From: Escherichia phage Jgk1
Strand: one strand, 5' to 3'
Length of the DNA stretch: 64,000 bases
Sequence record: PV292302.1
Shown: in pieces, positions 2,857-34,765 of the stretch
How the letters are laid out: every line of letters begins with the position of its first letter
Numbering within the stretch: the first letter of the stretch is position 1
Program-made: the position numbers and the translations under genes
The notes under the pieces: model-generated
Databases searched by the model: none
What the model was told of the DNA's origin: nothing
What the model saw: the letters and a program-made list of their open reading frames with translations, nothing else

Positions 2857-3023
2857 TGAATCATTATCAACGTATGTGGATTAAAGCATATCAGGATTAC
2901 CTGGGTGCTGCTAAAGCCACTGCTGAAAAACGAGGGGAAGTACTTCATACAACTGAGGTATTTATGGCCCGTAAACATGCTGATGCAGTGACTAATTCAC
3001 TGAAGGAGCTTGAAAATGCGTAA
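2856..3023 (+). CDS. Small hypothetical protein (55 aa)
   Basis: ATG overlapping upstream stop (TGATG); in-frame to TAA 3021-3023; below track cutoff. Confidence 0.3.
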   Translation: MNHYQRMWIKAYQDYLGAAKATAEKRGEVLHTTEVFMARKHADAVTNSLKELENA

Positions 3024-3177
3024 ATCATTAATCATGGGAACCAGAGAAGATGTTATTAAGCGTCGTGCTAAACAAGCTACTGCTCAATCAATGCCTGTTA
3101 CTGGTAGTAGCAGAACATATAACATTAAGCCTAAGCAGTATATCGTAACCTTCAACCATCCAATCTTAGGAAACTAA
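3016..3177 (+). CDS. Small hypothetical protein (53 aa)
   Basis: ATG at 3016 overlapping previous ORF end; stop abuts ATG of ORF 3179. Confidence 0.3.
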   Translation: MRKSLIMGTREDVIKRRAKQATAQSMPVTGSSRTYNIKPKQYIVTFNHPILGN

Positions 3178-3834: not shown

Positions 3835-4058
3835 TGTTATACAACACTGATTATGGACTATGCCCAATCTGCAACAAACGGAAAGGAGTTGCCAAACATA
3901 ATAAGTGTTCTCGTATTCTTCAGAAGCGTAGAAATAAAGAAGAGTGGGATAACACTCTTAATTCACAGCGTGAGTACGAGAATAAGAGGACTGCTCGTAA
4001 AGCATCAACTCAGCTTATTCGTCGTAAAAATCACATTGAAGGATATCAGGGGGAATAA
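3834..4058 (+). CDS. Small Cys-containing basic protein (74 aa), zinc-ribbon-like CPICNKR...KC
   Basis: ORF; CxxC...C pattern plus Arg/Lys-rich tail. Confidence 0.45.
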   Translation: MLYNTDYGLCPICNKRKGVAKHNKCSRILQKRRNKEEWDNTLNSQREYENKRTARKASTQLIRRKNHIEGYQGE

Positions 4059-4342
4059 TGAAAGTTATCACCTATCCTACTCACAAAATAGCACTCTATC
4101 TTAATCAAAAAGTAGAAGTGCCATTATGGGTTAAATATATTGCAGCCTATCCTATGACGTATGGAAGTAGTAGTTCTGCATTAATTGGCTTTAGCCATAA
4201 ACCCAAATTCACTAAGACTGGTATCTGGAAAATACCACCTCAGCATAAGAAAAGTAGGCAGGAACAAATAGGTATTATCCGTGGATTTGCACCTGCTCGT
4301 AATGAAATTGAAGCTACTCTAAGTGAGGTTCTAATACCATGA
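4058..4342 (+). CDS. Hypothetical protein (94 aa)
   Basis: ORF in operon with translationally coupled neighbours. Confidence 0.45.
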   Translation: MKVITYPTHKIALYLNQKVEVPLWVKYIAAYPMTYGSSSSALIGFSHKPKFTKTGIWKIPPQHKKSRQEQIGIIRGFAPARNEIEATLSEVLIP

Positions 4343-7619: not shown

Positions 7620-8837
7620 ATGCAAACTTTTACCGCTAAACAATATCTGGCTATCGACATTGCTAACAACTATGGTCTGGACAAGAAGACCTGGGACGAA
7701 CGTTTGGCATGGTTCGAAGAGAACAAAGGTAATTTGCTCAACTTAGTTGAATCAGCAGATGAACCGGCAATGTTCTATGCAGGTGTTGTAGCCTATCACG
7801 ACATGCTGGATGGTAAGCCTATCGGTTATACCGTAGCACTGGATGCAACGTCATCTGGTCTGCAATTACTGGCATGTCTCACTGGTGACCGTAAAGCAGC
7901 AGAACTGTGCAACGTAGTTAACTATATGGGTGATAACGGTAAGCCATTACGTCGTGATGCCTATACCGTTATCTATCACACTATGCTGGACATCGTAGGT
8001 CAGTCTTCCCGTGTTAAGCGAGATGACTGTAAGCAGGCTGTAATGACTGCATTCTACGGCTCTGAGGCTAAGCCTAAAGAAGTGTTCGGTGAAGGTATCC
8101 TGTTACGTACATTTGAGAACGTAATGGATACTTCTGCACCAGGTCCGTGGGCATTAAACAAGTTCCTGCTTCAGTGTGGTAACCCGGATGCTATGTCATA
8201 CCTCTGGGTACTGCCTGATAACTTCCATTGTCAGATTAAGGTAATGGTTCCTGAAGTTCAAACCGTGAACTTCCTGAACAAACCTTATGACATCACTCGT
8301 ATGGTTCAGGGTACTGAAGAGAAGACTCGTATGCTCTCCGCTAATACTACCCACTCCATTGATGGAATGGTGGTACGTGAGATGCTGCGTCGTTGTAACT
8401 ACGATGCTGACCTGATTACTTACGTTAAGCAGTTATGCTACGGGGTGCAGGAAAGCAATGTAGCTCTGGAAGAGAACTTTGACATGGTAATGCAGTTATG
8501 GAACCACTATGAGAAGAGTGGGTTCCTGTCCATGTACATCTGTAACTTCCTGGATGCAGGTTCTATCCATCTGGTAGACCGTCAGGTAATCCTGGACATG
8601 CTGGATACGCTTCCTAAGAAGCCATTCAAAGTGATGACCGTACATGACTGCTTCCGTTGCCATCCTAACTATGGCAATGACCTGCGTCGTCAGTACAACC
8701 AGATTCTGTCTGACATTGCCAAGAGTGACCTGCTGGGCTTCATCCTGAGCCAGGTACTAGGACAAGAGTTTTCTGCTGGTAAACTGGATAATGACCTATG
8801 GAAGGACATTCTGGAGACTGACTATGCGCTCAGCTAA
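7620..8837 (+). CDS. Phage RNA polymerase II large/catalytic subunit (T7-like single-subunit RNAP fold, N4 gp16-like)
   Basis: 405 aa; C-terminal MTVHDCFRCHP resembles the T7 RNAP HDSFG catalytic motif. Confidence 0.65.
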   Translation: MQTFTAKQYLAIDIANNYGLDKKTWDERLAWFEENKGNLLNLVESADEPAMFYAGVVAYHDMLDGKPIGYTVALDATSSGLQLLACLTGDRKAAELCNVVNYMGDNGKPLRRDAYTVIYHTMLDIVGQSSRVKRDDCKQAVMTAFYGSEAKPKEVFGEGILLRTFENVMDTSAPGPWALNKFLLQCGNPDAMSYLWVLPDNFHCQIKVMVPEVQTVNFLNKPYDITRMVQGTEEKTRMLSANTTHSIDGMVVREMLRRCNYDADLITYVKQLCYGVQESNVALEENFDMVMQLWNHYEKSGFLSMYICNFLDAGSIHLVDRQVILDMLDTLPKKPFKVMTVHDCFRCHPNYGNDLRRQYNQILSDIAKSDLLGFILSQVLGQEFSAGKLDNDLWKDILETDYALS

Positions 8838-8921
8838 ACTGTGGTTTGCTATATTCGCTGTAATTTATACAGGCTGCTCCCTGGCATTCAATATCTGGGT
8901 AACCTACTTCATGTAATAAAT

Positions 8922-8956
8922 AGCCACTCCTTCGGGAGTGGCTTATTTTTTTTTTT
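8922..8956 (+). terminator. Rho-independent terminator
   Basis: 9-bp hairpin agccactcc-ttcg-ggagtggct followed by a 13-T run. Confidence 0.8.
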
Positions 8957-9003
8957 TCTTTGACTGCATACTACTAGGGTTATTAACCCTAGAGGAAATT
9001 GCT

Positions 9004-9837
9004 ATGCCTACGTTAAAAGTTGCTTTTAACAAGACTACCAAGGTAGCTACCGTACTGGATGCCAGTGGTAGTGTACCTTCAGGTTCCGTAGAAATTGGAA
9101 CCTTTGTTCACCCTGATGCTACTTACCCAGATAGTTATGTTATCTATCATGGTGTACGTGACCTGCTCTATAAACGTGATAAAGATGACCCATCGGAGCC
9201 AGGTTTCTGGCCTAATAACTACGTAGATATGCAGGCAGTAACTATTACTAACTCTGCTACTCCACGTCTGGTTATTGGTACTGCACTGCCTCGTGTAATC
9301 TCCACCATTGAAGGTGAGGATGTAGTCTGGCATGTAGATGTAGCTGGTGGTAAAGCTCCTATCACTTATGAGTGGCAGTTCAAAGCTCTAACTCCTGGTG
9401 CTGATTACGTAGTAATTGATGATTCCATCAATCCATCTGCTGCTACCGCAACCCTGGTTAACAATGCTGTAACTCTGGAGTCTGCTGGTTATTACAAAGT
9501 AATTGCTACTGATGCCAATGGAACCACGGCAGAAAGTGAATCACTACTCGCTGTGGGTGCTTACGCTGCTGGCTCGCTGGTAGCTACACCTGCTTCACTG
9601 GCTCTGTCAGTAGCTGCTGATACTACCAATGGTAAAACTACTACCATTACTGCTCTGCCTGCTGGAACCAGTACAGGTACGTTGTTCATTAAGACTGCCC
9701 CTGCTTCTGCACAAGCTACTGCTACCTTAGCTGGTAATGTACTAACAGTTAAACCTGTAGCTGCTGGTGCTGCTACTTCTGTAGTAGTTAGTAATGGTAC
9801 TGTTGATGTTACTATCGCTGTGACAGTTGCAGCTTAA
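9004..9837 (+). CDS. Ig-like (Big-type) capsid decoration protein candidate (N4 gp17-like)
   Basis: Internal ATG of track ORF 8938; Thr/Ala/Val-rich beta-rich repeats; sits after RNAP II genes as in N4. Confidence 0.45.
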   Translation: MPTLKVAFNKTTKVATVLDASGSVPSGSVEIGTFVHPDATYPDSYVIYHGVRDLLYKRDKDDPSEPGFWPNNYVDMQAVTITNSATPRLVIGTALPRVISTIEGEDVVWHVDVAGGKAPITYEWQFKALTPGADYVVIDDSINPSAATATLVNNAVTLESAGYYKVIATDANGTTAESESLLAVGAYAAGSLVATPASLALSVAADTTNGKTTTITALPAGTSTGTLFIKTAPASAQATATLAGNVLTVKPVAAGAATSVVVSNGTVDVTIAVTVAA

Positions 9838-9902
9838 TAGTATCTGTTTGTTTGGTTAAAGCCCTCCTTGTGGGGGCTTTCTTGTATCTATAGGAGAGTA
9901 AA

Positions 9903-10367
9903 ATGAAAGAAGCAATAACAATCTCTTTTGCTGGTGCTCAGTGCACAGGAAAGAGTCGATTGATGGAAGAAACTAAAAAGAAATGCTCGGATAACTTTGA
10001 TATACAAGATTCAGTGGTAGAGCATGTATTAACTGCACGCATGCGTGAAGTAAATAAACCTAAATTACGTGTATGGCATATTCCACAAGTACCCGGCAAA
10101 CCTTTCTATGTAGAAGTGGACTCTGTAGCCGAAGGTGTTAAGGTCATAAAAACCCTTGCGTTATATGACCAGTTCCAGTTAGATAATAACATTAAAGGTG
10201 ACTTTTCAAACATGAATGGACTTGATATGTATGACGAAAGTCTTACAGACCAAGACCTATCTGATATAGGATTAGAAGACCGCTGGATATCCTGGTACTA
10301 CGAAGATGACAATGAATTCTTTGATGACCCAGAAAGGTATCTTGACTGGCTTGCTACGCAATCCTGA
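9903..10367 (+). CDS. P-loop-containing protein (154 aa), acidic C-terminus
   Basis: N-terminal Walker A-like GAQCTGKS. Confidence 0.45.
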   Translation: MKEAITISFAGAQCTGKSRLMEETKKKCSDNFDIQDSVVEHVLTARMREVNKPKLRVWHIPQVPGKPFYVEVDSVAEGVKVIKTLALYDQFQLDNNIKGDFSNMNGLDMYDESLTDQDLSDIGLEDRWISWYYEDDNEFFDDPERYLDWLATQS

Positions 10368-10418
10368 TTCTTTTTGTGGGTTGAAAAACCCCTGAATAAC
10401 ATTCCTTTGCTGTCTTTA

Positions 10419-10447
10419 GCCCACCCTTGCGGTGGGCATCTTTTTTT
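10419..10447 (+). terminator. Rho-independent terminator
   Basis: gcccacc-cttgc-ggtgggc hairpin plus T7 run. Confidence 0.75.
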
Positions 10448-10515
10448 GATTATTATGGGCATCCTTAGTCCATCATTCTGTCAAATGAAATCAACCCTTA
10501 ACCAAGTTAGAAAAA

Positions 10516-10541
10516 CCCCAGCATTGTCTGGGGTTTTTTTG
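10516..10541 (+). terminator. Rho-independent terminator
   Basis: ccccag-cattgt-ctgggg hairpin plus T7 run. Confidence 0.7.
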
Positions 10542-10571
10542 TTTTGGTGTTTAATTAACTGGAGAGTAAAA

Positions 10572-10790
10572 ATGCAGATTATTGAAGAAAGTATCTATGT
10601 ACCATTCGCTGATATTGGATGCGGCGAATGCTTCCGTACTCAAAGGGACAACTCGAATATTTATATGAAAATTGCTCTTCATAATGGCGATGAAACCGCT
10701 GTTAACATTGAGAATGGTTGCGAACATGAAATCCTTAATAAGGATACCTTCGAGGTTGTGCCAGTAACAACCAAGGTACATGTTAGATGA
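10572..10790 (+). CDS. Hypothetical protein (72 aa)
   Basis: Internal ATG of track ORF 10374 with GGAGAG RBS, downstream of both terminators. Confidence 0.45.
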   Translation: MQIIEESIYVPFADIGCGECFRTQRDNSNIYMKIALHNGDETAVNIENGCEHEILNKDTFEVVPVTTKVHVR

Positions 10791-11140
10791 TGGAAAAGAA
10801 CCGCAGGAAGACACTCATCGAGCGTCTGCTTGCCCGTATCAAGATAATGGATATGGGCTATACCGTTAAGGGTCAACCTAGCCTATGCCACATCTGGACT
10901 GGTTCCCATTCAGGGAATGGTCGAGGTGGTCAATATGGCAGGATTTCCGTGAATGGAATTACCTCTGCTACACATATTGTGGCCTATACCCATTATCACG
11001 GATACATCCCCTGCAAGATGCAGGTAGACCATCTCTGTAATAACCGTTTGTGCTGTAACCCCGAACACCTCGAACTGGTAACTCATCAGGAGAACCAGAA
11101 GAGAAGGGCTGCACGCCAAGCCAAAGGTAAAAAGAAATGA
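10787..11140 (+). CDS. HNH homing endonuclease
   Basis: HYHGYIP...VDHLCNNRLCCNPEHLE...HQEN: His-Asn-His with Cys pairs. Confidence 0.75.
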   Translation: MMEKNRRKTLIERLLARIKIMDMGYTVKGQPSLCHIWTGSHSGNGRGGQYGRISVNGITSATHIVAYTHYHGYIPCKMQVDHLCNNRLCCNPEHLELVTHQENQKRRAARQAKGKKK

Positions 11141-11322
11141 AAGATGAAGCAAAATTTGCTTTCTTTATTGGTGCTGTAGCTGGAATGTTTTTCATGGGGT
11201 TAGGTATGACGCATATCGGCCCCAATTCCAAAGCTAAAATTGATAGCTTAAAGGCTGAATGTGAACTTAACATTCCTCGTAATGAATCCTGTGTAATGCA
11301 GTTCGTACCGGAGAAAAAATGA
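11137..11322 (+). CDS. Small membrane protein (61 aa)
   Basis: ORF with hydrophobic segment FAFFIGAVAGMFFMGLGM. Confidence 0.4.
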   Translation: MKDEAKFAFFIGAVAGMFFMGLGMTHIGPNSKAKIDSLKAECELNIPRNESCVMQFVPEKK

Positions 11323-11504
11323 CCCTAACTCGTACACAACAATCTACCCTGCGAATGATTGCAGGTGGTTTAACTCGTGTTGCACCTAATAACAAAACTG
11401 CCATTGCTTTGAAGAAAGCTGGGCTGGTTTACCATAAACCTGCTTTTGGTTGGCTCCTGACTGATGCAGGGAACCAGAAGCACAAAGAGCTAGTGGGTAA
11501 ATAA
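11319..11504 (+). CDS. Hypothetical protein (61 aa)
   Basis: ORF, translationally coupled. Confidence 0.4.
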   Translation: MTLTRTQQSTLRMIAGGLTRVAPNNKTAIALKKAGLVYHKPAFGWLLTDAGNQKHKELVGK

Positions 11505-11833
11505 TGAAAACTCTTTTAGCCGTTTTGTTGGTGTCAGCCTCTGTGCTGTCTTTCTCTGCCAAAGCCTCTGACTCATCAGATAATCTGATTGAGGCTGCTC
11601 AGGCATACCTCAATGAACCTATTGCCTATATCCAGCAAGGATACTTCATGGGCATGGTTCAGTTATATGGTGATAGCACAGAGAACTGCGTACCAGAAGG
11701 TCTTCGCTATCGTGAAGTAAACCAACGCGTAGCCCGTGTAATTGCTTATGACGCTAACGTCGTAACAATGCACTCGTCCTATAAAATCATGGAATACGCT
11801 TTCAACAAAGCCTATCCGTGCAAGAAACTTTAA
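11504..11833 (+). CDS. Putative secreted/periplasmic protein (109 aa)
   Basis: N-terminal signal-peptide-like MKTLLAVLLVSASVLSFSAKA. Confidence 0.45.
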   Translation: MKTLLAVLLVSASVLSFSAKASDSSDNLIEAAQAYLNEPIAYIQQGYFMGMVQLYGDSTENCVPEGLRYREVNQRVARVIAYDANVVTMHSSYKIMEYAFNKAYPCKKL

Positions 11834-11860: not shown

Positions 11861-12208
11861 ATGAGCGACCGTACCCCCTCAACTGATGCCCTGGAAACTC
11901 TGGGCATGATTCACTTTAAGCCAGAACATCGTGATGCCATTCACTTAGCTGTTGAACCAGTGGTAGCTGGTTGCTCCCTGCGTATAGGACAGCGCATTGG
12001 TATTGTAAATGGTGTGGCTTACCCTGTTGGATTTAAAATCCAGTATGAAGGTAGTGCCTGTGAAGTAACTGCTCCTTACCACGGCATCGTTGACCCATTC
12101 CTGCCAACAGGACCACTCGAAGGCCAGAAGTTCTGGTTCGTAATGGCTCCACGGATGGTTACATCCTTACGTCATGTCTGGTCACACCCGGAGTTCCCTG
12201 ATGAGTGA
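11861..12208 (+). CDS. Hypothetical protein (115 aa)
   Basis: ORF with GGAGA RBS. Confidence 0.45.
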   Translation: MSDRTPSTDALETLGMIHFKPEHRDAIHLAVEPVVAGCSLRIGQRIGIVNGVAYPVGFKIQYEGSACEVTAPYHGIVDPFLPTGPLEGQKFWFVMAPRMVTSLRHVWSHPEFPDE

Positions 12209-12560
12209 ACCATTAGATATTAATGACGCTGCATTATGTGAAGCGTTGTTGTTAATGGGTGATGAAAAAGCCGTAGCCTGGGCATGGATTCAGGGTTATA
12301 CCAAGAACCTGCTACAGGAAATTCAAGAGTATCTTGGTGATGTTGACTACGAATATCAGTCCAATGTCATTCAGGATGAATACGACTTAATGGAACTCGC
12401 TGACGGTCACCAGAATGGTAACTGGGGTGATTACATGATTGTTGGTGGACTCTTTGAAGGTAACGGCGTTGACCCGCTATTCTGGGACAAGTATGCAATT
12501 GTCCGTGGTATCCCTCGTGAAGAAGTGTCTGATAGTAACTTCTTCTCTTGCTCCTGTTAA
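12201..12560 (+). CDS. Hypothetical acidic protein (119 aa)
   Basis: Internal ATG of track ORF 12174. Confidence 0.4.
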   Translation: MSEPLDINDAALCEALLLMGDEKAVAWAWIQGYTKNLLQEIQEYLGDVDYEYQSNVIQDEYDLMELADGHQNGNWGDYMIVGGLFEGNGVDPLFWDKYAIVRGIPREEVSDSNFFSCSC

Positions 12561-12571
12561 GGAATTAAATA

Positions 12572-13627
12572 ATGGCAAGTATCGACTCACTTGTTGTGTG
12601 TAACTCACGACAGGCTCGTAAGTTTGTTATCCGTACTTTGTTAGCAGGCAACGTTCCGTTCCTGACTTCATCTCCAGGTATGGGTAAATCTGCAATGATT
12701 CGTTCTATTGCAGAAGAATTTGGTATGAAGCTGATTGACCATCGTCTGTCTACTTCTGCCCCGGAAGACCTGTCAGGTCTGCCTCGTTTTACCTCAGATG
12801 GGCGTGCAGAGTTTGCACCATTCAATGACTTGTTCCCTCTGGAAGGGGATAAGATTCCTGATGGTTATAACGGCTGGCTTCTATTCCTGGATGAGTTTAA
12901 CTCAGCCAAGAAGGAAGTAGTAGCTGCTGCATATAAACTGATTCTTGACCGTATGACTGGTCAGAAGAAATTACATGAAAATGTAATGATTGTCTGTGCT
13001 GGTAACAAACAAACTGACCGTGCCATCGTTAACCCAATGGGTACTGCAATGCAGTCTCGTGTGGTTCACTTTGAGATGGAAATGAATTTCGACATCTTTC
13101 TTGAAGATGTAATGATTCCTCAGAAGTGGGATGAACGTCTGGTTGCATTCCTTCATGCTAATACATCGTATCTGCATGACTTCGACCCAGCTCATAAGAA
13201 CAAAACGTTCTGTTGTCCTCGTACATGGGACTTTGTTAACAAAGACCTTAAGAACCAGGCTCCTGGGGCTTTACCAGATGAAGATTCCCTCTATTATGCT
13301 GGTCATGTTACGGCAGGTAAGGCTACAGAATTCGTACAGTTTACTCAGGTTTATAACCAACTGGTCACTATCGAACAGGTAGTTAAAGACCCGAAAAATG
13401 CACGATTACCCCAGGACAACAACCTGTGCTGGGCTACTGTTACATATCTCGCTAACAAGACTACGGTAGACAATTTCCCAGAAATTGTGGAATACATTCA
13501 GCGTTTCAACACGATGACGCATCGTATTCTTTACTTCCGTGCAGCCAGTAAGATGTGTCCAGATGTCACTGGTTTACCAGAATGGCGTCAGGCTGCTGCT
13601 TCCCTGTCTCGTTACTTACACGGATAA
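12572..13627 (+). CDS. MoxR-like AAA+ ATPase
   Basis: Walker A SPGMGKSAM, Walker B LLFLDEF, MoxR-like IVCAGNKQTD. Confidence 0.7.
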   Translation: MASIDSLVVCNSRQARKFVIRTLLAGNVPFLTSSPGMGKSAMIRSIAEEFGMKLIDHRLSTSAPEDLSGLPRFTSDGRAEFAPFNDLFPLEGDKIPDGYNGWLLFLDEFNSAKKEVVAAAYKLILDRMTGQKKLHENVMIVCAGNKQTDRAIVNPMGTAMQSRVVHFEMEMNFDIFLEDVMIPQKWDERLVAFLHANTSYLHDFDPAHKNKTFCCPRTWDFVNKDLKNQAPGALPDEDSLYYAGHVTAGKATEFVQFTQVYNQLVTIEQVVKDPKNARLPQDNNLCWATVTYLANKTTVDNFPEIVEYIQRFNTMTHRILYFRAASKMCPDVTGLPEWRQAAASLSRYLHG

Positions 13628-34205: not shown

Positions 34206-34765
34206 TGCAAATCCCAATTCTCGGAGCAGATATTTCACTTCGGAATTGGGGATTAGCAAGGGGTATGCTGGACATTGAATCCGGTGTGTTTGAGAAGGTA
34301 GAACTCAAACTGGTTCAGACTGAAGTTGACCACAACAAGCAAGTCCGAACCAACTCCAAAGACATTCAAGCTGCTCATGATATCTTCATTGGCGTAAGAG
34401 ACTGGCTCATTGACGATAAGCCTAAAGCTATCTTCATTGAAGTGCCTGTAGGTTCTCAGTCTGCTAATGGCATGAAATCCTACGGCTTGTGTGTCGGACT
34501 CGTTGGGGCATTCCGTGCATTGGGATGCCCTGTATTCGAGGTATCCCCTACCGAAAATAAAATTGCACTGGCTGGCAGTAAGACAGCTTCCAAAGACGTA
34601 ATGATACGTACTGCCCATGAAATCTATCCTGAAGCTAACTGGCTCAAGGATGGTAAGGGCAAGTTGCTCAATAAGAATGAGCACTTAGCTGATGCTATCG
34701 GTGCAATCCATGCTGGAGTTAATCTTCCAGCGTTTCAAAACTTACTGAATATGTTAAAGGCTTAA
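34205..34765 (+). CDS. RuvC-like Holliday junction resolvase
   Basis: N-terminal ILGADIS, IFIEVP and C-terminal HLADAIGAIHAG resemble RuvC catalytic motifs. Confidence 0.45.
   Translation: MQIPILGADISLRNWGLARGMLDIESGVFEKVELKLVQTEVDHNKQVRTNSKDIQAAHDIFIGVRDWLIDDKPKAIFIEVPVGSQSANGMKSYGLCVGLVGAFRALGCPVFEVSPTENKIALAGSKTASKDVMIRTAHEIYPEANWLKDGKGKLLNKNEHLADAIGAIHAGVNLPAFQNLLNMLKA

Follow-up and report, generated by a model that had tools for sequence, protein, structure and literature searches.

An HNH endonuclease gene beside two terminators in an N4-like phage is probably a resident gp22 orthologue next to an emptied cargo slot

Introduction

When an HNH endonuclease gene lies just behind strong transcription terminators, is it a mobile cassette at its insertion point, or an old resident whose surroundings have changed? 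This question is raised by a locus of Escherichia phage Jgk1, which we analysed as one stretch of 64,000 nucleotides (record PV292302.1, hereafter the window). The window derives from an N4-like podovirus (Schitoviridae, Enquatrovirinae) whose nearest relative is Shigella virus Moo19. An original prediction placed an HNH gene at 10787-11140 together with a 72-aa open reading frame and two terminators, and read the ensemble as the insertion point of a mobile cassette. All four elements are present at these positions, and the mobile-cassette reading of the locus is only partly supported. We find it likely that the HNH gene is a resident, vertically inherited orthologue of N4 gp22, a conserved gene that earlier work on N4-like phages labels a ‘putative homing/HNH endonuclease’ (PMC2784036, PMC4837373), and that the two terminators, T1 and T2, belong to a neighbouring cargo slot that has been emptied in this phage.

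Results

The HNH product is a compact His-Me finger protein

We first consider the protein itself; all features described below lie on the plus strand. The gene at 10787..11140 encodes a 117-aa product that bears out the prediction of an HNH nuclease: it scores 67.8 bits with Pfam HNH_3 (PF13392, E = 6e-19, cut-off 24.8), a type to which many homing endonucleases belong, and also matches zf-His_Me_endon (PF05551, 28.0 bits, cut-off 27) and the PHROG 1872 ‘endonuclease’ family (E = 1.5e-45). Its sole PADLOC match was the generic ‘HEase’ model (E = 9e-10), the small ORFs adjoining it returned no PADLOC match, and NCBIfam contained no model for the HNH product, the 72-aa ORF or the upstream superinfection-exclusion (sie) protein.

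The AlphaFold2 model of the protein (pLDDT 91.6) contains strands at residues 78-82 and 95-99 followed by a helix at 100-115. An alignment of 69 homologues shows no variation at D81, H82, N103, C34, C84 and H94, and at least 90% of them retain N91 and H100. Predicted model and alignment together place a conserved general-base histidine and metal-ligand Asp/Asn residues in a beta-beta-alpha-metal fold. Searching PDB chains with the sequence, singly or as a 69-sequence profile, gave chance matches only; a Foldseek search with the model returned I-PpoI as the best PDB match (E = 3e-3, TM 0.52, prob 1.0, ~120 columns) and I-HmuI as the second (E = 0.03). The protein has a zinc-stabilised His-Me finger core with no accessory DNA-binding domain. 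It is a putative active enzyme that would nick or cut DNA in a Mg/Zn-dependent manner and may form a dimer, as I-PpoI does. Literature on N4 gp22 and its orthologues yielded annotation-level statements and no experiment, so both activity and role are what we infer here; the main text of the CRISPRi-ART phage fitness paper mentions neither N4-like phages, HNH nor Schitoviridae. We considered and rejected a Holliday-junction resolvase, an unlikely role since the window, N4 and Moo19 all carry a separate RuvC-like gene.

The HNH gene holds one position in at least eight genera of N4-like phages

We next asked where the gene occurs. Its product shares 96% amino acid identity with Moo19 gp32, 86% with N4 gp22 (115/117 aa; 90% over residues 3-103 in another alignment) and 84.5% with the KP8 protein. 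The gene lies between RNAP2 (gp16)/Hoc and the gp24 ATPase in N4, Moo19, KP8, JZBo1, phiAxp-3, Pokken, Kuerle, Kc283 and EK8, and it is single-copy and syntenic in at least eight genera. Each of 218 phage records contains it in exactly one place (218 places), and no paralogue was found within the window. The family spans phages of alpha-, beta- and gamma-proteobacteria; in Litunavirus the gene is located between DNA polymerase and rIIA. Only 17 Escherichia records contain it, compared with 65 Escherichia records that match the left 25 kb of the window. Unrelated Vibrio phages of 38 kb also carry homologues with 52% amino acid identity, which means at least one transfer of the gene between phage families.

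Presence/absence polymorphism, whose lack was to have counted against the mobile-cassette reading, does exist: Gamaleyavirus carries no HNH gene. Comparison with these HNH-less relatives, proposed as the check, yields a precise boundary. In Gamaleyavirus T1 is followed directly by a homologue of the gene downstream of HNH, and the indel therefore spans window positions 10448-11136. The absence is clade-wide and restricted to this genus. Neither N4 nor KP8 is as near to the window as Gamaleyavirus, which is thus nested inside the HNH-positive clade, and a loss is the best reading of the absence; a whole genus living without the gene also indicates that it is inessential to the N4-like life cycle. 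Sporadic presence and absence among the closest relatives, as expected of a mobile homing gene, was sought and not found. The gene is kept in the window, Moo19, five related contigs or phages (L012, L013, L014, L015 and DSF2) despite swapped neighbours. In a comparison of L012 with Moo19, which share 92-97% of nucleotides, sie, the T1 allele, the slot cargo, gp21 and the gene after HNH all differ, whereas HNH itself is 94.6% identical. DSF2 has the same pattern, with HNH kept while its neighbours are swapped (PMC13153029).

Substitution patterns agree with this picture. Pairwise HNH identity tracks that of core genes (Spearman 0.76 for gp16 and 0.74 for gp24), and HNH is more conserved than gp16 in 95% and than gp24 in 98% of genome pairs, with dN/dS of 0.02-0.08. 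Synonymous divergence (pS) is on a par with that of the flanking genes, at 0.58 against N4 and a saturated 0.75 against KP8. The comparison with Moo19 is different: HNH pS is 0.24 +/- 0.05, among the lowest in the genome (typical values are 0.45-0.70), and its immediate neighbours are not low, which points to a gene-sized exchange between the two lineages.

HNH is part of a probably coupled chain of small genes

The 72-aa ORF is present, as had been noted, at 10572..10790: it has its own Shine-Dalgarno sequence (GGAGAG, five bases 5' of the ATG), and the same gene is called in related metagenomic contigs. Alignment and PHROG 7431 (E = 3.8e-7) identify it as a homologue of N4 gp21 with a CxxC motif. 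Its identity falls from 71% in L012 to 46% in L014 and L015 and 30% in N4 gp21; Moo19 lacks it, and in KP8 another small ORF takes its place. Downstream of HNH lies orf61a (11137..11322), a 61-aa small membrane protein gene (PHROG 7508, E = 3e-27) that forms the right boundary of the HNH indel and is the first gene after T1 in Gamaleyavirus. By tblastn its product is 67% identical in KP8, 70% in JZBo1, 48% in St11Ph5 gp17.1 and 38% in Moo19 gp33; a homologue directly follows HNH in L012/L013, L014, Moo19 and KP8/JZBo1, and none was detected in N4. ATGA stop/start overlaps join the 72-aa ORF to HNH, HNH to orf61a, and orf61a to a second 61-aa ORF, orf61b. HNH would thereby be the second cistron of a translationally coupled middle-region chain (gp21-like, HNH, two 61-aa ORFs and a 109-aa ORF) that appears to begin just after T2.

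No promoter was identified for this operon downstream of T2, and a sigma-70 scan found none upstream of it. N4 RNAPII promoters are described as short AT-rich sites, ‘-7 to +2’, with no usable consensus (PMC4496689), a description too weak to support a scan downstream of T2.

Within orf61a, an alignment of eight phages reveals an abrupt change in conservation: the 5' two-thirds are highly divergent, and the last 33 nt (11290..11322, TGTGTAATGCAGTTCGTACCGGAGAAAAAATGA) are nearly invariant and followed by different downstream genes. This 33-nt joint carries the Shine-Dalgarno sequence and start codon of the following gene, and it appears in genome comparisons as short 94-95% matches amid diverged or non-aligning sequence.

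T1 and T2 bracket a separate cargo slot

Two strong terminators had been predicted, and both sites consist of a GC-rich hairpin and a T tract, with predicted structures more stable than shuffled sequence. T1 (10419..10447) has a 7-bp stem with six GC pairs (GCCCACC/GGTGGGC, 10419-10437) followed by seven T in a run that reaches 10447 (dG -14.5 kcal/mol, z -3.3). T2 (10508..10541) has the core CCCCAG/CTGGGG at 10516-10533 within an extended A/U stem at 10508-10541, for a total of 14 pairs plus seven T (dG -18, z -4.4). Conservation by compensation supports both structures across seven genomes, in which the orthologous T1 hairpin has compensatory changes in 4/8 pairs and T2 in 3/12, counts drawn from a small sample of related sequences. 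Between the window and KP8, T1 is 91% identical over 45 nt with flanks at 70% or less. Upstream of T1 lies a smaller conserved hairpin, H0 (GGGTT GAAA AACCC, 10378..10391; dG -6.6, z -2.1), which aligns in the window, Moo19, N4, St11Ph5, L012, L014 and KP8 and lies behind the stop codon of the gene before the T1 cassette, whichever gene that is.

The spacing of T1 and T2, ~90 nt, is not what the background would give, because within the first 40 kb a strict perfect-stem scan detected only ~10 terminators on the plus strand; a scan of the region counted 13 terminator-like sites, where shuffles gave 4.1 +/- 2.2. An Rfam search of 8800-11400 returned nothing near gathering scores, and hence no catalogued sRNA or leader in the T1-T2 interval.

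The description of HNH as terminator-flanked does not hold, as T1 and T2 are both upstream of HNH and bracket another slot. T1 is predicted to end the transcription unit of sie (9903..10367), a P22 gp17-like superinfection-exclusion homologue and N4 gp18 orthologue (PF17420 GP17, E = 4e-42, residues 54-150), and forms the left edge of the slot; T2 forms its right edge, directly 5' of the gp21-like/HNH operon. The sie product has a 53-aa N-terminal extension not present in relatives: tblastn alignments to Moo19, N4 and St11Ph5 begin at residue 50-54, and the extension had no match in a tblastn search of the phage collection.

The T1-cargo-T2 arrangement is found in KP8, JZBo1, L012, L014, N4 and Moo19, with unrelated genes at one position between conserved bounding sequences. 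In the metagenomic L012 and L014 and the Klebsiella phages KP8 and JZBo1 the cargo is an 87-89-aa membrane protein with two transmembrane segments, homologous among the four; in N4 and Moo19 it is gp19 plus the SPFH lipoprotein gp20. T2 lies 3' of the cargo gene in the former four and 3' of gp20/gp31 in N4 and Moo19.

In the window, the slot is empty apart from an orphan leader (10448..10507) homologous to the 5' leader of the L012/KP8 membrane-protein gene. By blastn, window positions 10366-10507 match L012 4669-4804 at 79%. The leader in L012 and KP8 continues through CCAAGTAGG(N5)ATG into the cargo ORF; in the window the Shine-Dalgarno sequence has decayed to AAGTTAG and abuts T2 directly, with TAG microhomology at the leader/T2 junction. 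Descent of the spacer from the 3' end of gp20 was also considered and dropped, since the 5' leader of the L012/KP8 cargo aligns much better.

Discussion

Together, these data suggest the following history. The HNH gene would have passed down vertically together with the phage backbone, with very strong purifying selection on it, and would act as a fixed anchor around which neighbouring small genes are exchanged between phages, with the conserved hairpins and the joint at 11290-11322 as likely junctions of exchange. T1 would end the sie unit and T2 the unit of the cargo lying between them. The T1 allele and leader of the window appear to be those that precede the 87-89-aa membrane-protein gene in relatives; the cargo ORF seems to have been cleanly deleted, apparently across the TAG microhomology, which would have left the leader orphaned and reduced the T1-T2 distance to ~60 nt. 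The direction of this event, deletion here rather than insertion elsewhere, is suggested by a single piece of sequence, the ~60-nt orphan leader. The T1/T2 pair would then be unconnected with HNH insertion. Of the proposed insertion point, what stands is a hot spot of gene flux; what falls is the recent arrival of HNH, which is single-copy and syntenic in at least eight genera.

That the gene has been retained for so long suggests that the phage profits from it, rather than that selfish homing is still under way; the benefit might lie in cutting competitor or host DNA or in processing phage DNA. An extended form of this reading, which we put forward tentatively and would not yet expect to hold in full, is that the N4 gp22 family comprises domesticated, phage-beneficial nucleases not engaged in homing, and that H0-T1-leader, T2 and the 33-nt joint are recombination joints; candidate jobs for a domesticated gp22 would then be nicking host or competitor DNA and processing replication intermediates.

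The principal competing explanation is a free-standing homing cassette of ~690 bp (leader-T2-gp21-like-HNH) that inserted after T1 and is still able to spread, its enzyme cutting HNH-less DNA of the Gamaleyavirus type near the T1/orf61a junction and the cassette being copied in by repair. HNH_3 is typical of phage homing endonucleases, the PADLOC match has the same flavour, and the nearest solved folds, I-PpoI and I-HmuI, are homing enzymes. The indel relative to Gamaleyavirus is clean, running from the end of T1 on the left to the start codon of the orf61a homologue on the right, and the 33-nt patch 150 bp downstream could serve as homology arm or target; the gene-sized patch of low pS against Moo19 and the Vibrio-phage homologues both hint at mobility. 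We nevertheless consider this explanation unlikely. The gene is single-copy and syntenic in at least eight genera, with identity tracking core genes, pS against N4 and KP8 as high as its flanks and low dN/dS, and the closest relatives show no presence/absence difference even where neighbours have been swapped. One loss in Gamaleyavirus explains the distribution better than several gains at one site, and HNH is translationally coupled to both neighbours. Real sporadic endonuclease insertions in these genomes look different: the window lacks Moo19 gp58, which lies between the exonuclease and primase genes, and the endo VII gene of PGN829.1 lies just upstream of RNAP2, in an RNAP1-RNAP2 interval that contains no endonuclease gene in the window, N4 or Moo19.

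Two further explanations are much less probable. The HNH protein could be a packaging accessory nuclease like HK97 gp74, helping terminase to make N4-type ends; small stand-alone HNH proteins reportedly assist terminases in many phages, as Kala et al. are said to have described in 2014, and no mechanism for cutting the ends of N4-type genomes is known to have been worked out. This is highly improbable for a gene located in the early/middle part of the genome, where RNAP2, sie and replication-associated genes lie, and far from the packaging genes: its neighbours are RNAP2, the Hoc-like gene, sie, small ORFs, the gp24 ATPase and a vWA protein, not terminase or portal, the Litunavirus copy lies between DNA polymerase and rIIA, and complete records from isolated Gamaleyavirus phages do without it. 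We regard it as equally remote that T1 and T2 are hairpin promoters for phage RNA polymerases, making the slot a tandem promoter region that drives the HNH operon. Hairpins are reported as early and middle promoters in the N4-like phage LUZ7, where middle promoters are GC-rich hairpins with stems of at least 6 bp, 3-4-nt loops and a position ~15 bp 5' of the start site (bioRxiv 10.1101/2022.03.18.484859); the lack of a sigma-70-like promoter before the operon would also fit. T1 and T2, however, have loops of 5-6 nt followed at once by seven T, the canonical form of an intrinsic terminator, each lies 3' of a stop codon in every relative, and the published description of N4 RNAPII promoters is one of AT-rich sites, not hairpins (PMC4496689).

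Our preferred reading, a resident gp22 orthologue beside an emptied slot, is mainly a correction: an HNH gene beside terminators resembles a mobile cassette, yet no other gene in its very fluid neighbourhood is as stable. The finding is largely ordinary, a known and highly conserved gp22 gene next to a slot that has lost its cargo, and the name ‘homing endonuclease’ probably misleads when given to the N4 gp22 family. A nuclease under stronger constraint than the middle RNA polymerase of its phage is a modest lead for phage biology. The T1, leader and T2 elements and the 33-nt joint are a second one, as concrete candidates, on sequence grounds, for sites of accessory-gene exchange in Schitoviridae.

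N4 gp22, Moo19 gp32, KP8 gp029, phiAxp-3 ORF21 and roseophage DSS3phi2 ORF43 are the annotated HNH orthologues; the enterobacterial ones share 86-96% of amino acids, length, HNH_3 and zinc-loop domains and position with the window gene, and only the surroundings differ. Upstream of HNH, the window has neither gp19-gp20 nor the 88-aa membrane-protein cargo; it keeps the gp21-like ORF lost in Moo19, and the small genes downstream of HNH differ. I-HmuI, the HNH_3 nicking homing endonuclease of Bacillus phage SPO1 (PDB 1U3E), has a catalytic core of the same Pfam family and a conserved D-H...N...N catalytic pattern. It is a 174-aa, intron-encoded and sporadic enzyme with extra C-terminal DNA-binding modules, unlike the window protein, a bare 117-aa core that is free-standing and family-wide. 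I-PpoI, the His-Cys box enzyme (PDB 1A74/1EVW), matches nearly the full length of the window protein and resembles it in its zinc-stabilised His-Me finger and N-terminal beta-sheet, a likeness that makes dimeric DNA binding conceivable for such a small protein; the two share only 17-18% identity, and I-PpoI is eukaryotic and intron-encoded. The slot has its closest parallels in the terminator-bounded morons of lambdoid phages and in the ‘PeSL’ promoter/stem-loop cassettes that Arbiol and colleagues are said to have proposed in 2010 as mediators of modular shuffling in T4-type phages. As in those systems, non-homologous cargo occupies one position bounded by conserved regulatory hairpins, and T1 allele A with its leader travels with the 88-aa membrane-protein cargo; the T1-T2 slot differs in belonging to another phage family and in using terminators and a leader in place of early promoters.

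An orthologue of N4 gp22 among the N4 gene set

The first 25 kb of the window matched N4-like podoviruses, with Shigella virus Moo19 as the top match (82% nucleotide identity over 66% of the query) and the Gamaleyavirus (G7C-like) coliphages as the next best (~79% over 40-48%). The genes surrounding the HNH locus are the N4 set, comprising in order the RNAP2 large subunit (7620-8837, PF00940), a Hoc-like Ig protein, a P22-gp17-like superinfection-exclusion protein (sie; 9903-10367, PF17420), a run of small ORFs and the gp24-type ATPase (12572-13627). As originally predicted, the 117-aa ORF at 10787-11140 is an HNH gene (profile searches: HNH_3, E 6e-19; PHROG 1872, E 1.5e-45), and it is orthologous to N4 gp22. 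Amino acid identity to the window HNH was 96% for Moo19 gp32, 86% for N4 gp22, 84.5% for the Klebsiella phages KP8 and JZBo1, and 61-65% for Achromobacter, Stenotrophomonas, Erwinia and Kosakonia phages.

We recovered the gene by tblastn (E <= 1e-22) in 218 phage records, one copy each, nearly all of them 70-76-kb Schitoviridae. It lies between RNAP2 and the gp24 ATPase in N4, Moo19, KP8, JZBo1, phiAxp-3, Pokken, Kuerle, Kc283 and EK8, and, likewise as a single copy, after the DNA polymerase in Litunavirus and after rIIA/rIIB in roseophages. The gene is already on record as a conserved 'putative homing/HNH endonuclease homologous to N4 gp22' (PMC2784036, PMC4837373), and our literature search found no functional work on N4 gp22 or its orthologues. 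In Pseudomonas phage PA26 (L010 4990-5339), the homologue aligns in a single frame over residues 4-103, while in the record only the C-terminal 63 aa are labelled 'HNH endonuclease' and an overlapping ORF of 132 aa is annotated in a different frame, probably an error repeated across many Litunavirus records.

With 69 homologues as its basis, AlphaFold gave a confident model (pLDDT 91.6) in which an N-terminal helix and a beta-sheet accompany a beta-beta-alpha-metal motif made up of strands 78-82 and 95-99 and helix 100-115. Foldseek searches of the PDB matched the model to I-PpoI (E 3e-3, TM 0.52 over ~120 columns), I-HmuI (E 0.03) and SMAD MH1 domains. Across the 69 homologues, D81, H82, N103, C34, C84 and H94 are invariant and C89, C90 and H35 are kept in at least 90%, a pattern in keeping with a catalytic His-Me finger that a zinc site stabilises. 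The protein has no accessory DNA-binding domain and, by analogy with I-PpoI, may act as a dimer. Roles as a resolvase or a terminase helper are unlikely, since the window encodes a separate RuvC-like resolvase and HNH lies a long way from the packaging genes.

The terminators bracket an emptied cargo slot

Both strong terminators named in the original prediction proved sound, T1 (10419-10447; -14.5 kcal/mol, z -3.3) and T2 (10508-10541; -18 kcal/mol, z -4.4) each consisting of a stable hairpin followed by seven T's. In the first 40 kb, a strict scan returned only ~10 comparable terminators on the plus strand, and in seven genomes the orthologous sites carry both hairpins, with compensatory changes in the stems. 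T1 follows sie, or a substitute gene there, in N4, Moo19, St11Ph5, KP8 and the metagenomic relatives L012 and L014; T2 follows the cargo unit and stands directly 5' of the gp21/HNH operon. Between them, N4 and Moo19 carry gp19 (membrane) and gp20 (SPFH lipoprotein), and L012, L014, KP8 and JZBo1 carry a homologous 87-89-aa two-TM protein (42-62% identity). The window has 60 nt and nothing else.

In L012 (79%) and also in KP8, the sequence that aligns with this stretch is the 5' leader of the 87-89-aa gene, and the alignment stops at the Shine-Dalgarno sequence (AAGTAGG in the relatives, AAGTTAG in the window), with T2 following directly. The window's T1 allele (GCCCACC...) is the one paired with leader and cargo in KP8 and L012, the alternative (GACCTCCC...) occurring in Moo19, L014 and St11Ph5; between the window and KP8, T1 is 91% identical and the flanking genes at most 70%. 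From the slot contents, the leader alignment and the T1 allele, we therefore conclude that the tight terminator pair delimits a cargo slot that has been emptied. The TAG at the window junction is common to both sides of the L012 cargo gene, consistent with cargo loss by microhomology deletion. Because both terminators lie upstream of HNH and bracket this empty slot adjoining it, the proposal of a mobile HNH cassette in a terminator-flanked slot misassigned the slot; the variable, possibly exchangeable, unit is T1-leader-cargo-T2, excluding HNH.

In this region, as in N4, Moo19, St11Ph5 and KP8, genes are arranged as successive single-gene units, because RNAP2, the Hoc-like gene and sie each end in a strong terminator of their own (8922-8943, 9858-9880 and 10419-10447), with T2 beyond. 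Between the sie stop codon and T1 lies a small, AT-rich hairpin (10378-10391, GGGTT GAAA AACCC) with a conserved ATTCCTT motif after it, kept in N4, Moo19, St11Ph5, KP8, L012 and L014 independently of the upstream gene (sie, Hoc or Ig protein). The sie homologue itself has 154 aa in the window versus ~104 aa in N4, Moo19 and St11Ph5. Its 53 additional N-terminal residues (9903-10061) include a Walker-A-like GAQCTGKS motif, have their own strong RBS and gave no tblastn match among 50,697 phage records; the extension could be a fusion with a P-loop gene fragment.

A translationally linked operon and a conserved 33-nt patch

The predicted 72-aa ORF was found at 10572-10790 as a gp21-like gene (orf72) with a GGAGAG ribosome-binding site and a stop codon overlapping the HNH start. 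ATGA overlaps link orf72, HNH, orf61a (11137-11322), which encodes a 61-aa membrane protein, and a second 61-aa ORF, orf61b; orf109 starts at the final nucleotide of the stop codon of orf61b. T2, orf72, HNH and orf61a are colinear with L012 and L013 (87%). The last 33 nt of orf61a (11290-11322; TGTGTAATGCAGTTCGTACCGGAGAAAAAATGA) are nearly invariant in eight phages of several genera and include the Shine-Dalgarno sequence and ATG of the following cistron; outside this patch orf61a is highly divergent and barely alignable in these phages, and the next gene differs. Judged from these alignments, the patch looks like a mosaic joint.

Farther downstream, orf109 (11504-11833) begins with a sequence resembling a signal peptide and matches Rap1a immunity proteins only weakly, below threshold (PF18602; E 0.002, 19 bits versus a cut-off of 27.7). 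Its counterpart is Gamaleyavirus gp17.3 (35% aa identity), and no homologue was detected in Moo19, N4 or KP8. Two overlapping ORFs in different frames, 11861-12208 (115 aa) and 12174-12560 (128 aa), match the N- and C-terminal halves of one 226-residue profile, phrog_11912, as well as separate profiles; they apparently form a single protein in some phages and may be related by split, fusion or frameshift.

Inheritance of the HNH gene

Tests of HNH mobility were mostly negative. In pairwise comparisons of 12 genomes, HNH identity tracked that of RNAP2 (Spearman 0.76, 66 pairs) and the ATPase (0.74, 55 pairs), and HNH was the more conserved in 95% and 98% of pairs, respectively. Its dN/dS was 0.02-0.08, and its synonymous divergence was 0.58 versus N4 (flanking genes 0.61-0.67) and a saturated 0.75 versus KP8; being as high as in the flanks, it indicates that protein identity reflects constraint, not recent transfer. 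L012 and Moo19, 92-97% identical, are unlike each other at sie, the T1 allele, the slot cargo, gp21 and the gene that follows HNH, yet share HNH at 94.6% despite these swapped neighbours, and DSF2, a published Moo19 relative, likewise keeps HNH amid differing neighbours (PMC13153029).

That the gene is a homing endonuclease has a low probability, even with two observations in its favour. Unrelated 38-kb Vibrio phages carry homologues with 52% identity, and HNH synonymous divergence between the window and Moo19 (0.24 +/- 0.05) is among the genome's lowest (typically 0.45-0.70), which is not so in its neighbours. Values about half the genome norm were also seen versus Moo19 for the RuvC-like resolvase (0.22; 34265-34762) and the homologues of Moo19 gp16 and gp19 (0.26; 3016-3168 and 4058-4339), and these genes, HNH included, look like patches that were exchanged more recently.

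Comparison with HNH-less relatives did reveal an absence: 17 Escherichia phage records carry HNH versus 65 matching the left 25 kb of the window, and in the Gamaleyavirus phages St11Ph5, G17 and PGN829.1 T1 leads directly to an orf61a homologue. Because RNAP2 (78% versus 67-70%) and ATPase (81% versus 60-62%) identities place Gamaleyavirus nearer to the window than N4 or KP8, a single loss is the simplest history. HNH is a known, vertically inherited and strongly constrained family gene, and the remaining interest lies in the strength of selection acting on this gp22-type nuclease and in the conserved hairpin and joint sequences where neighbouring genes have been exchanged.

Real sporadic endonuclease insertions do occur in the same genomes. 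In PGN829.1 (L019 1-526), an 'endonuclease VII' gene ends 2 nt before the RNAP2 start, within an RNAP1-RNAP2 interval that holds no endonuclease gene in the window, N4 or Moo19. Moo19 gp58, a 171-aa HNH gene absent from the window, sits between the gp42-like exonuclease and primase genes (L011 31599-32114), which abut at ~30401 in the window; unlike the gp22 orthologue, it is a textbook sporadic endonuclease insertion.
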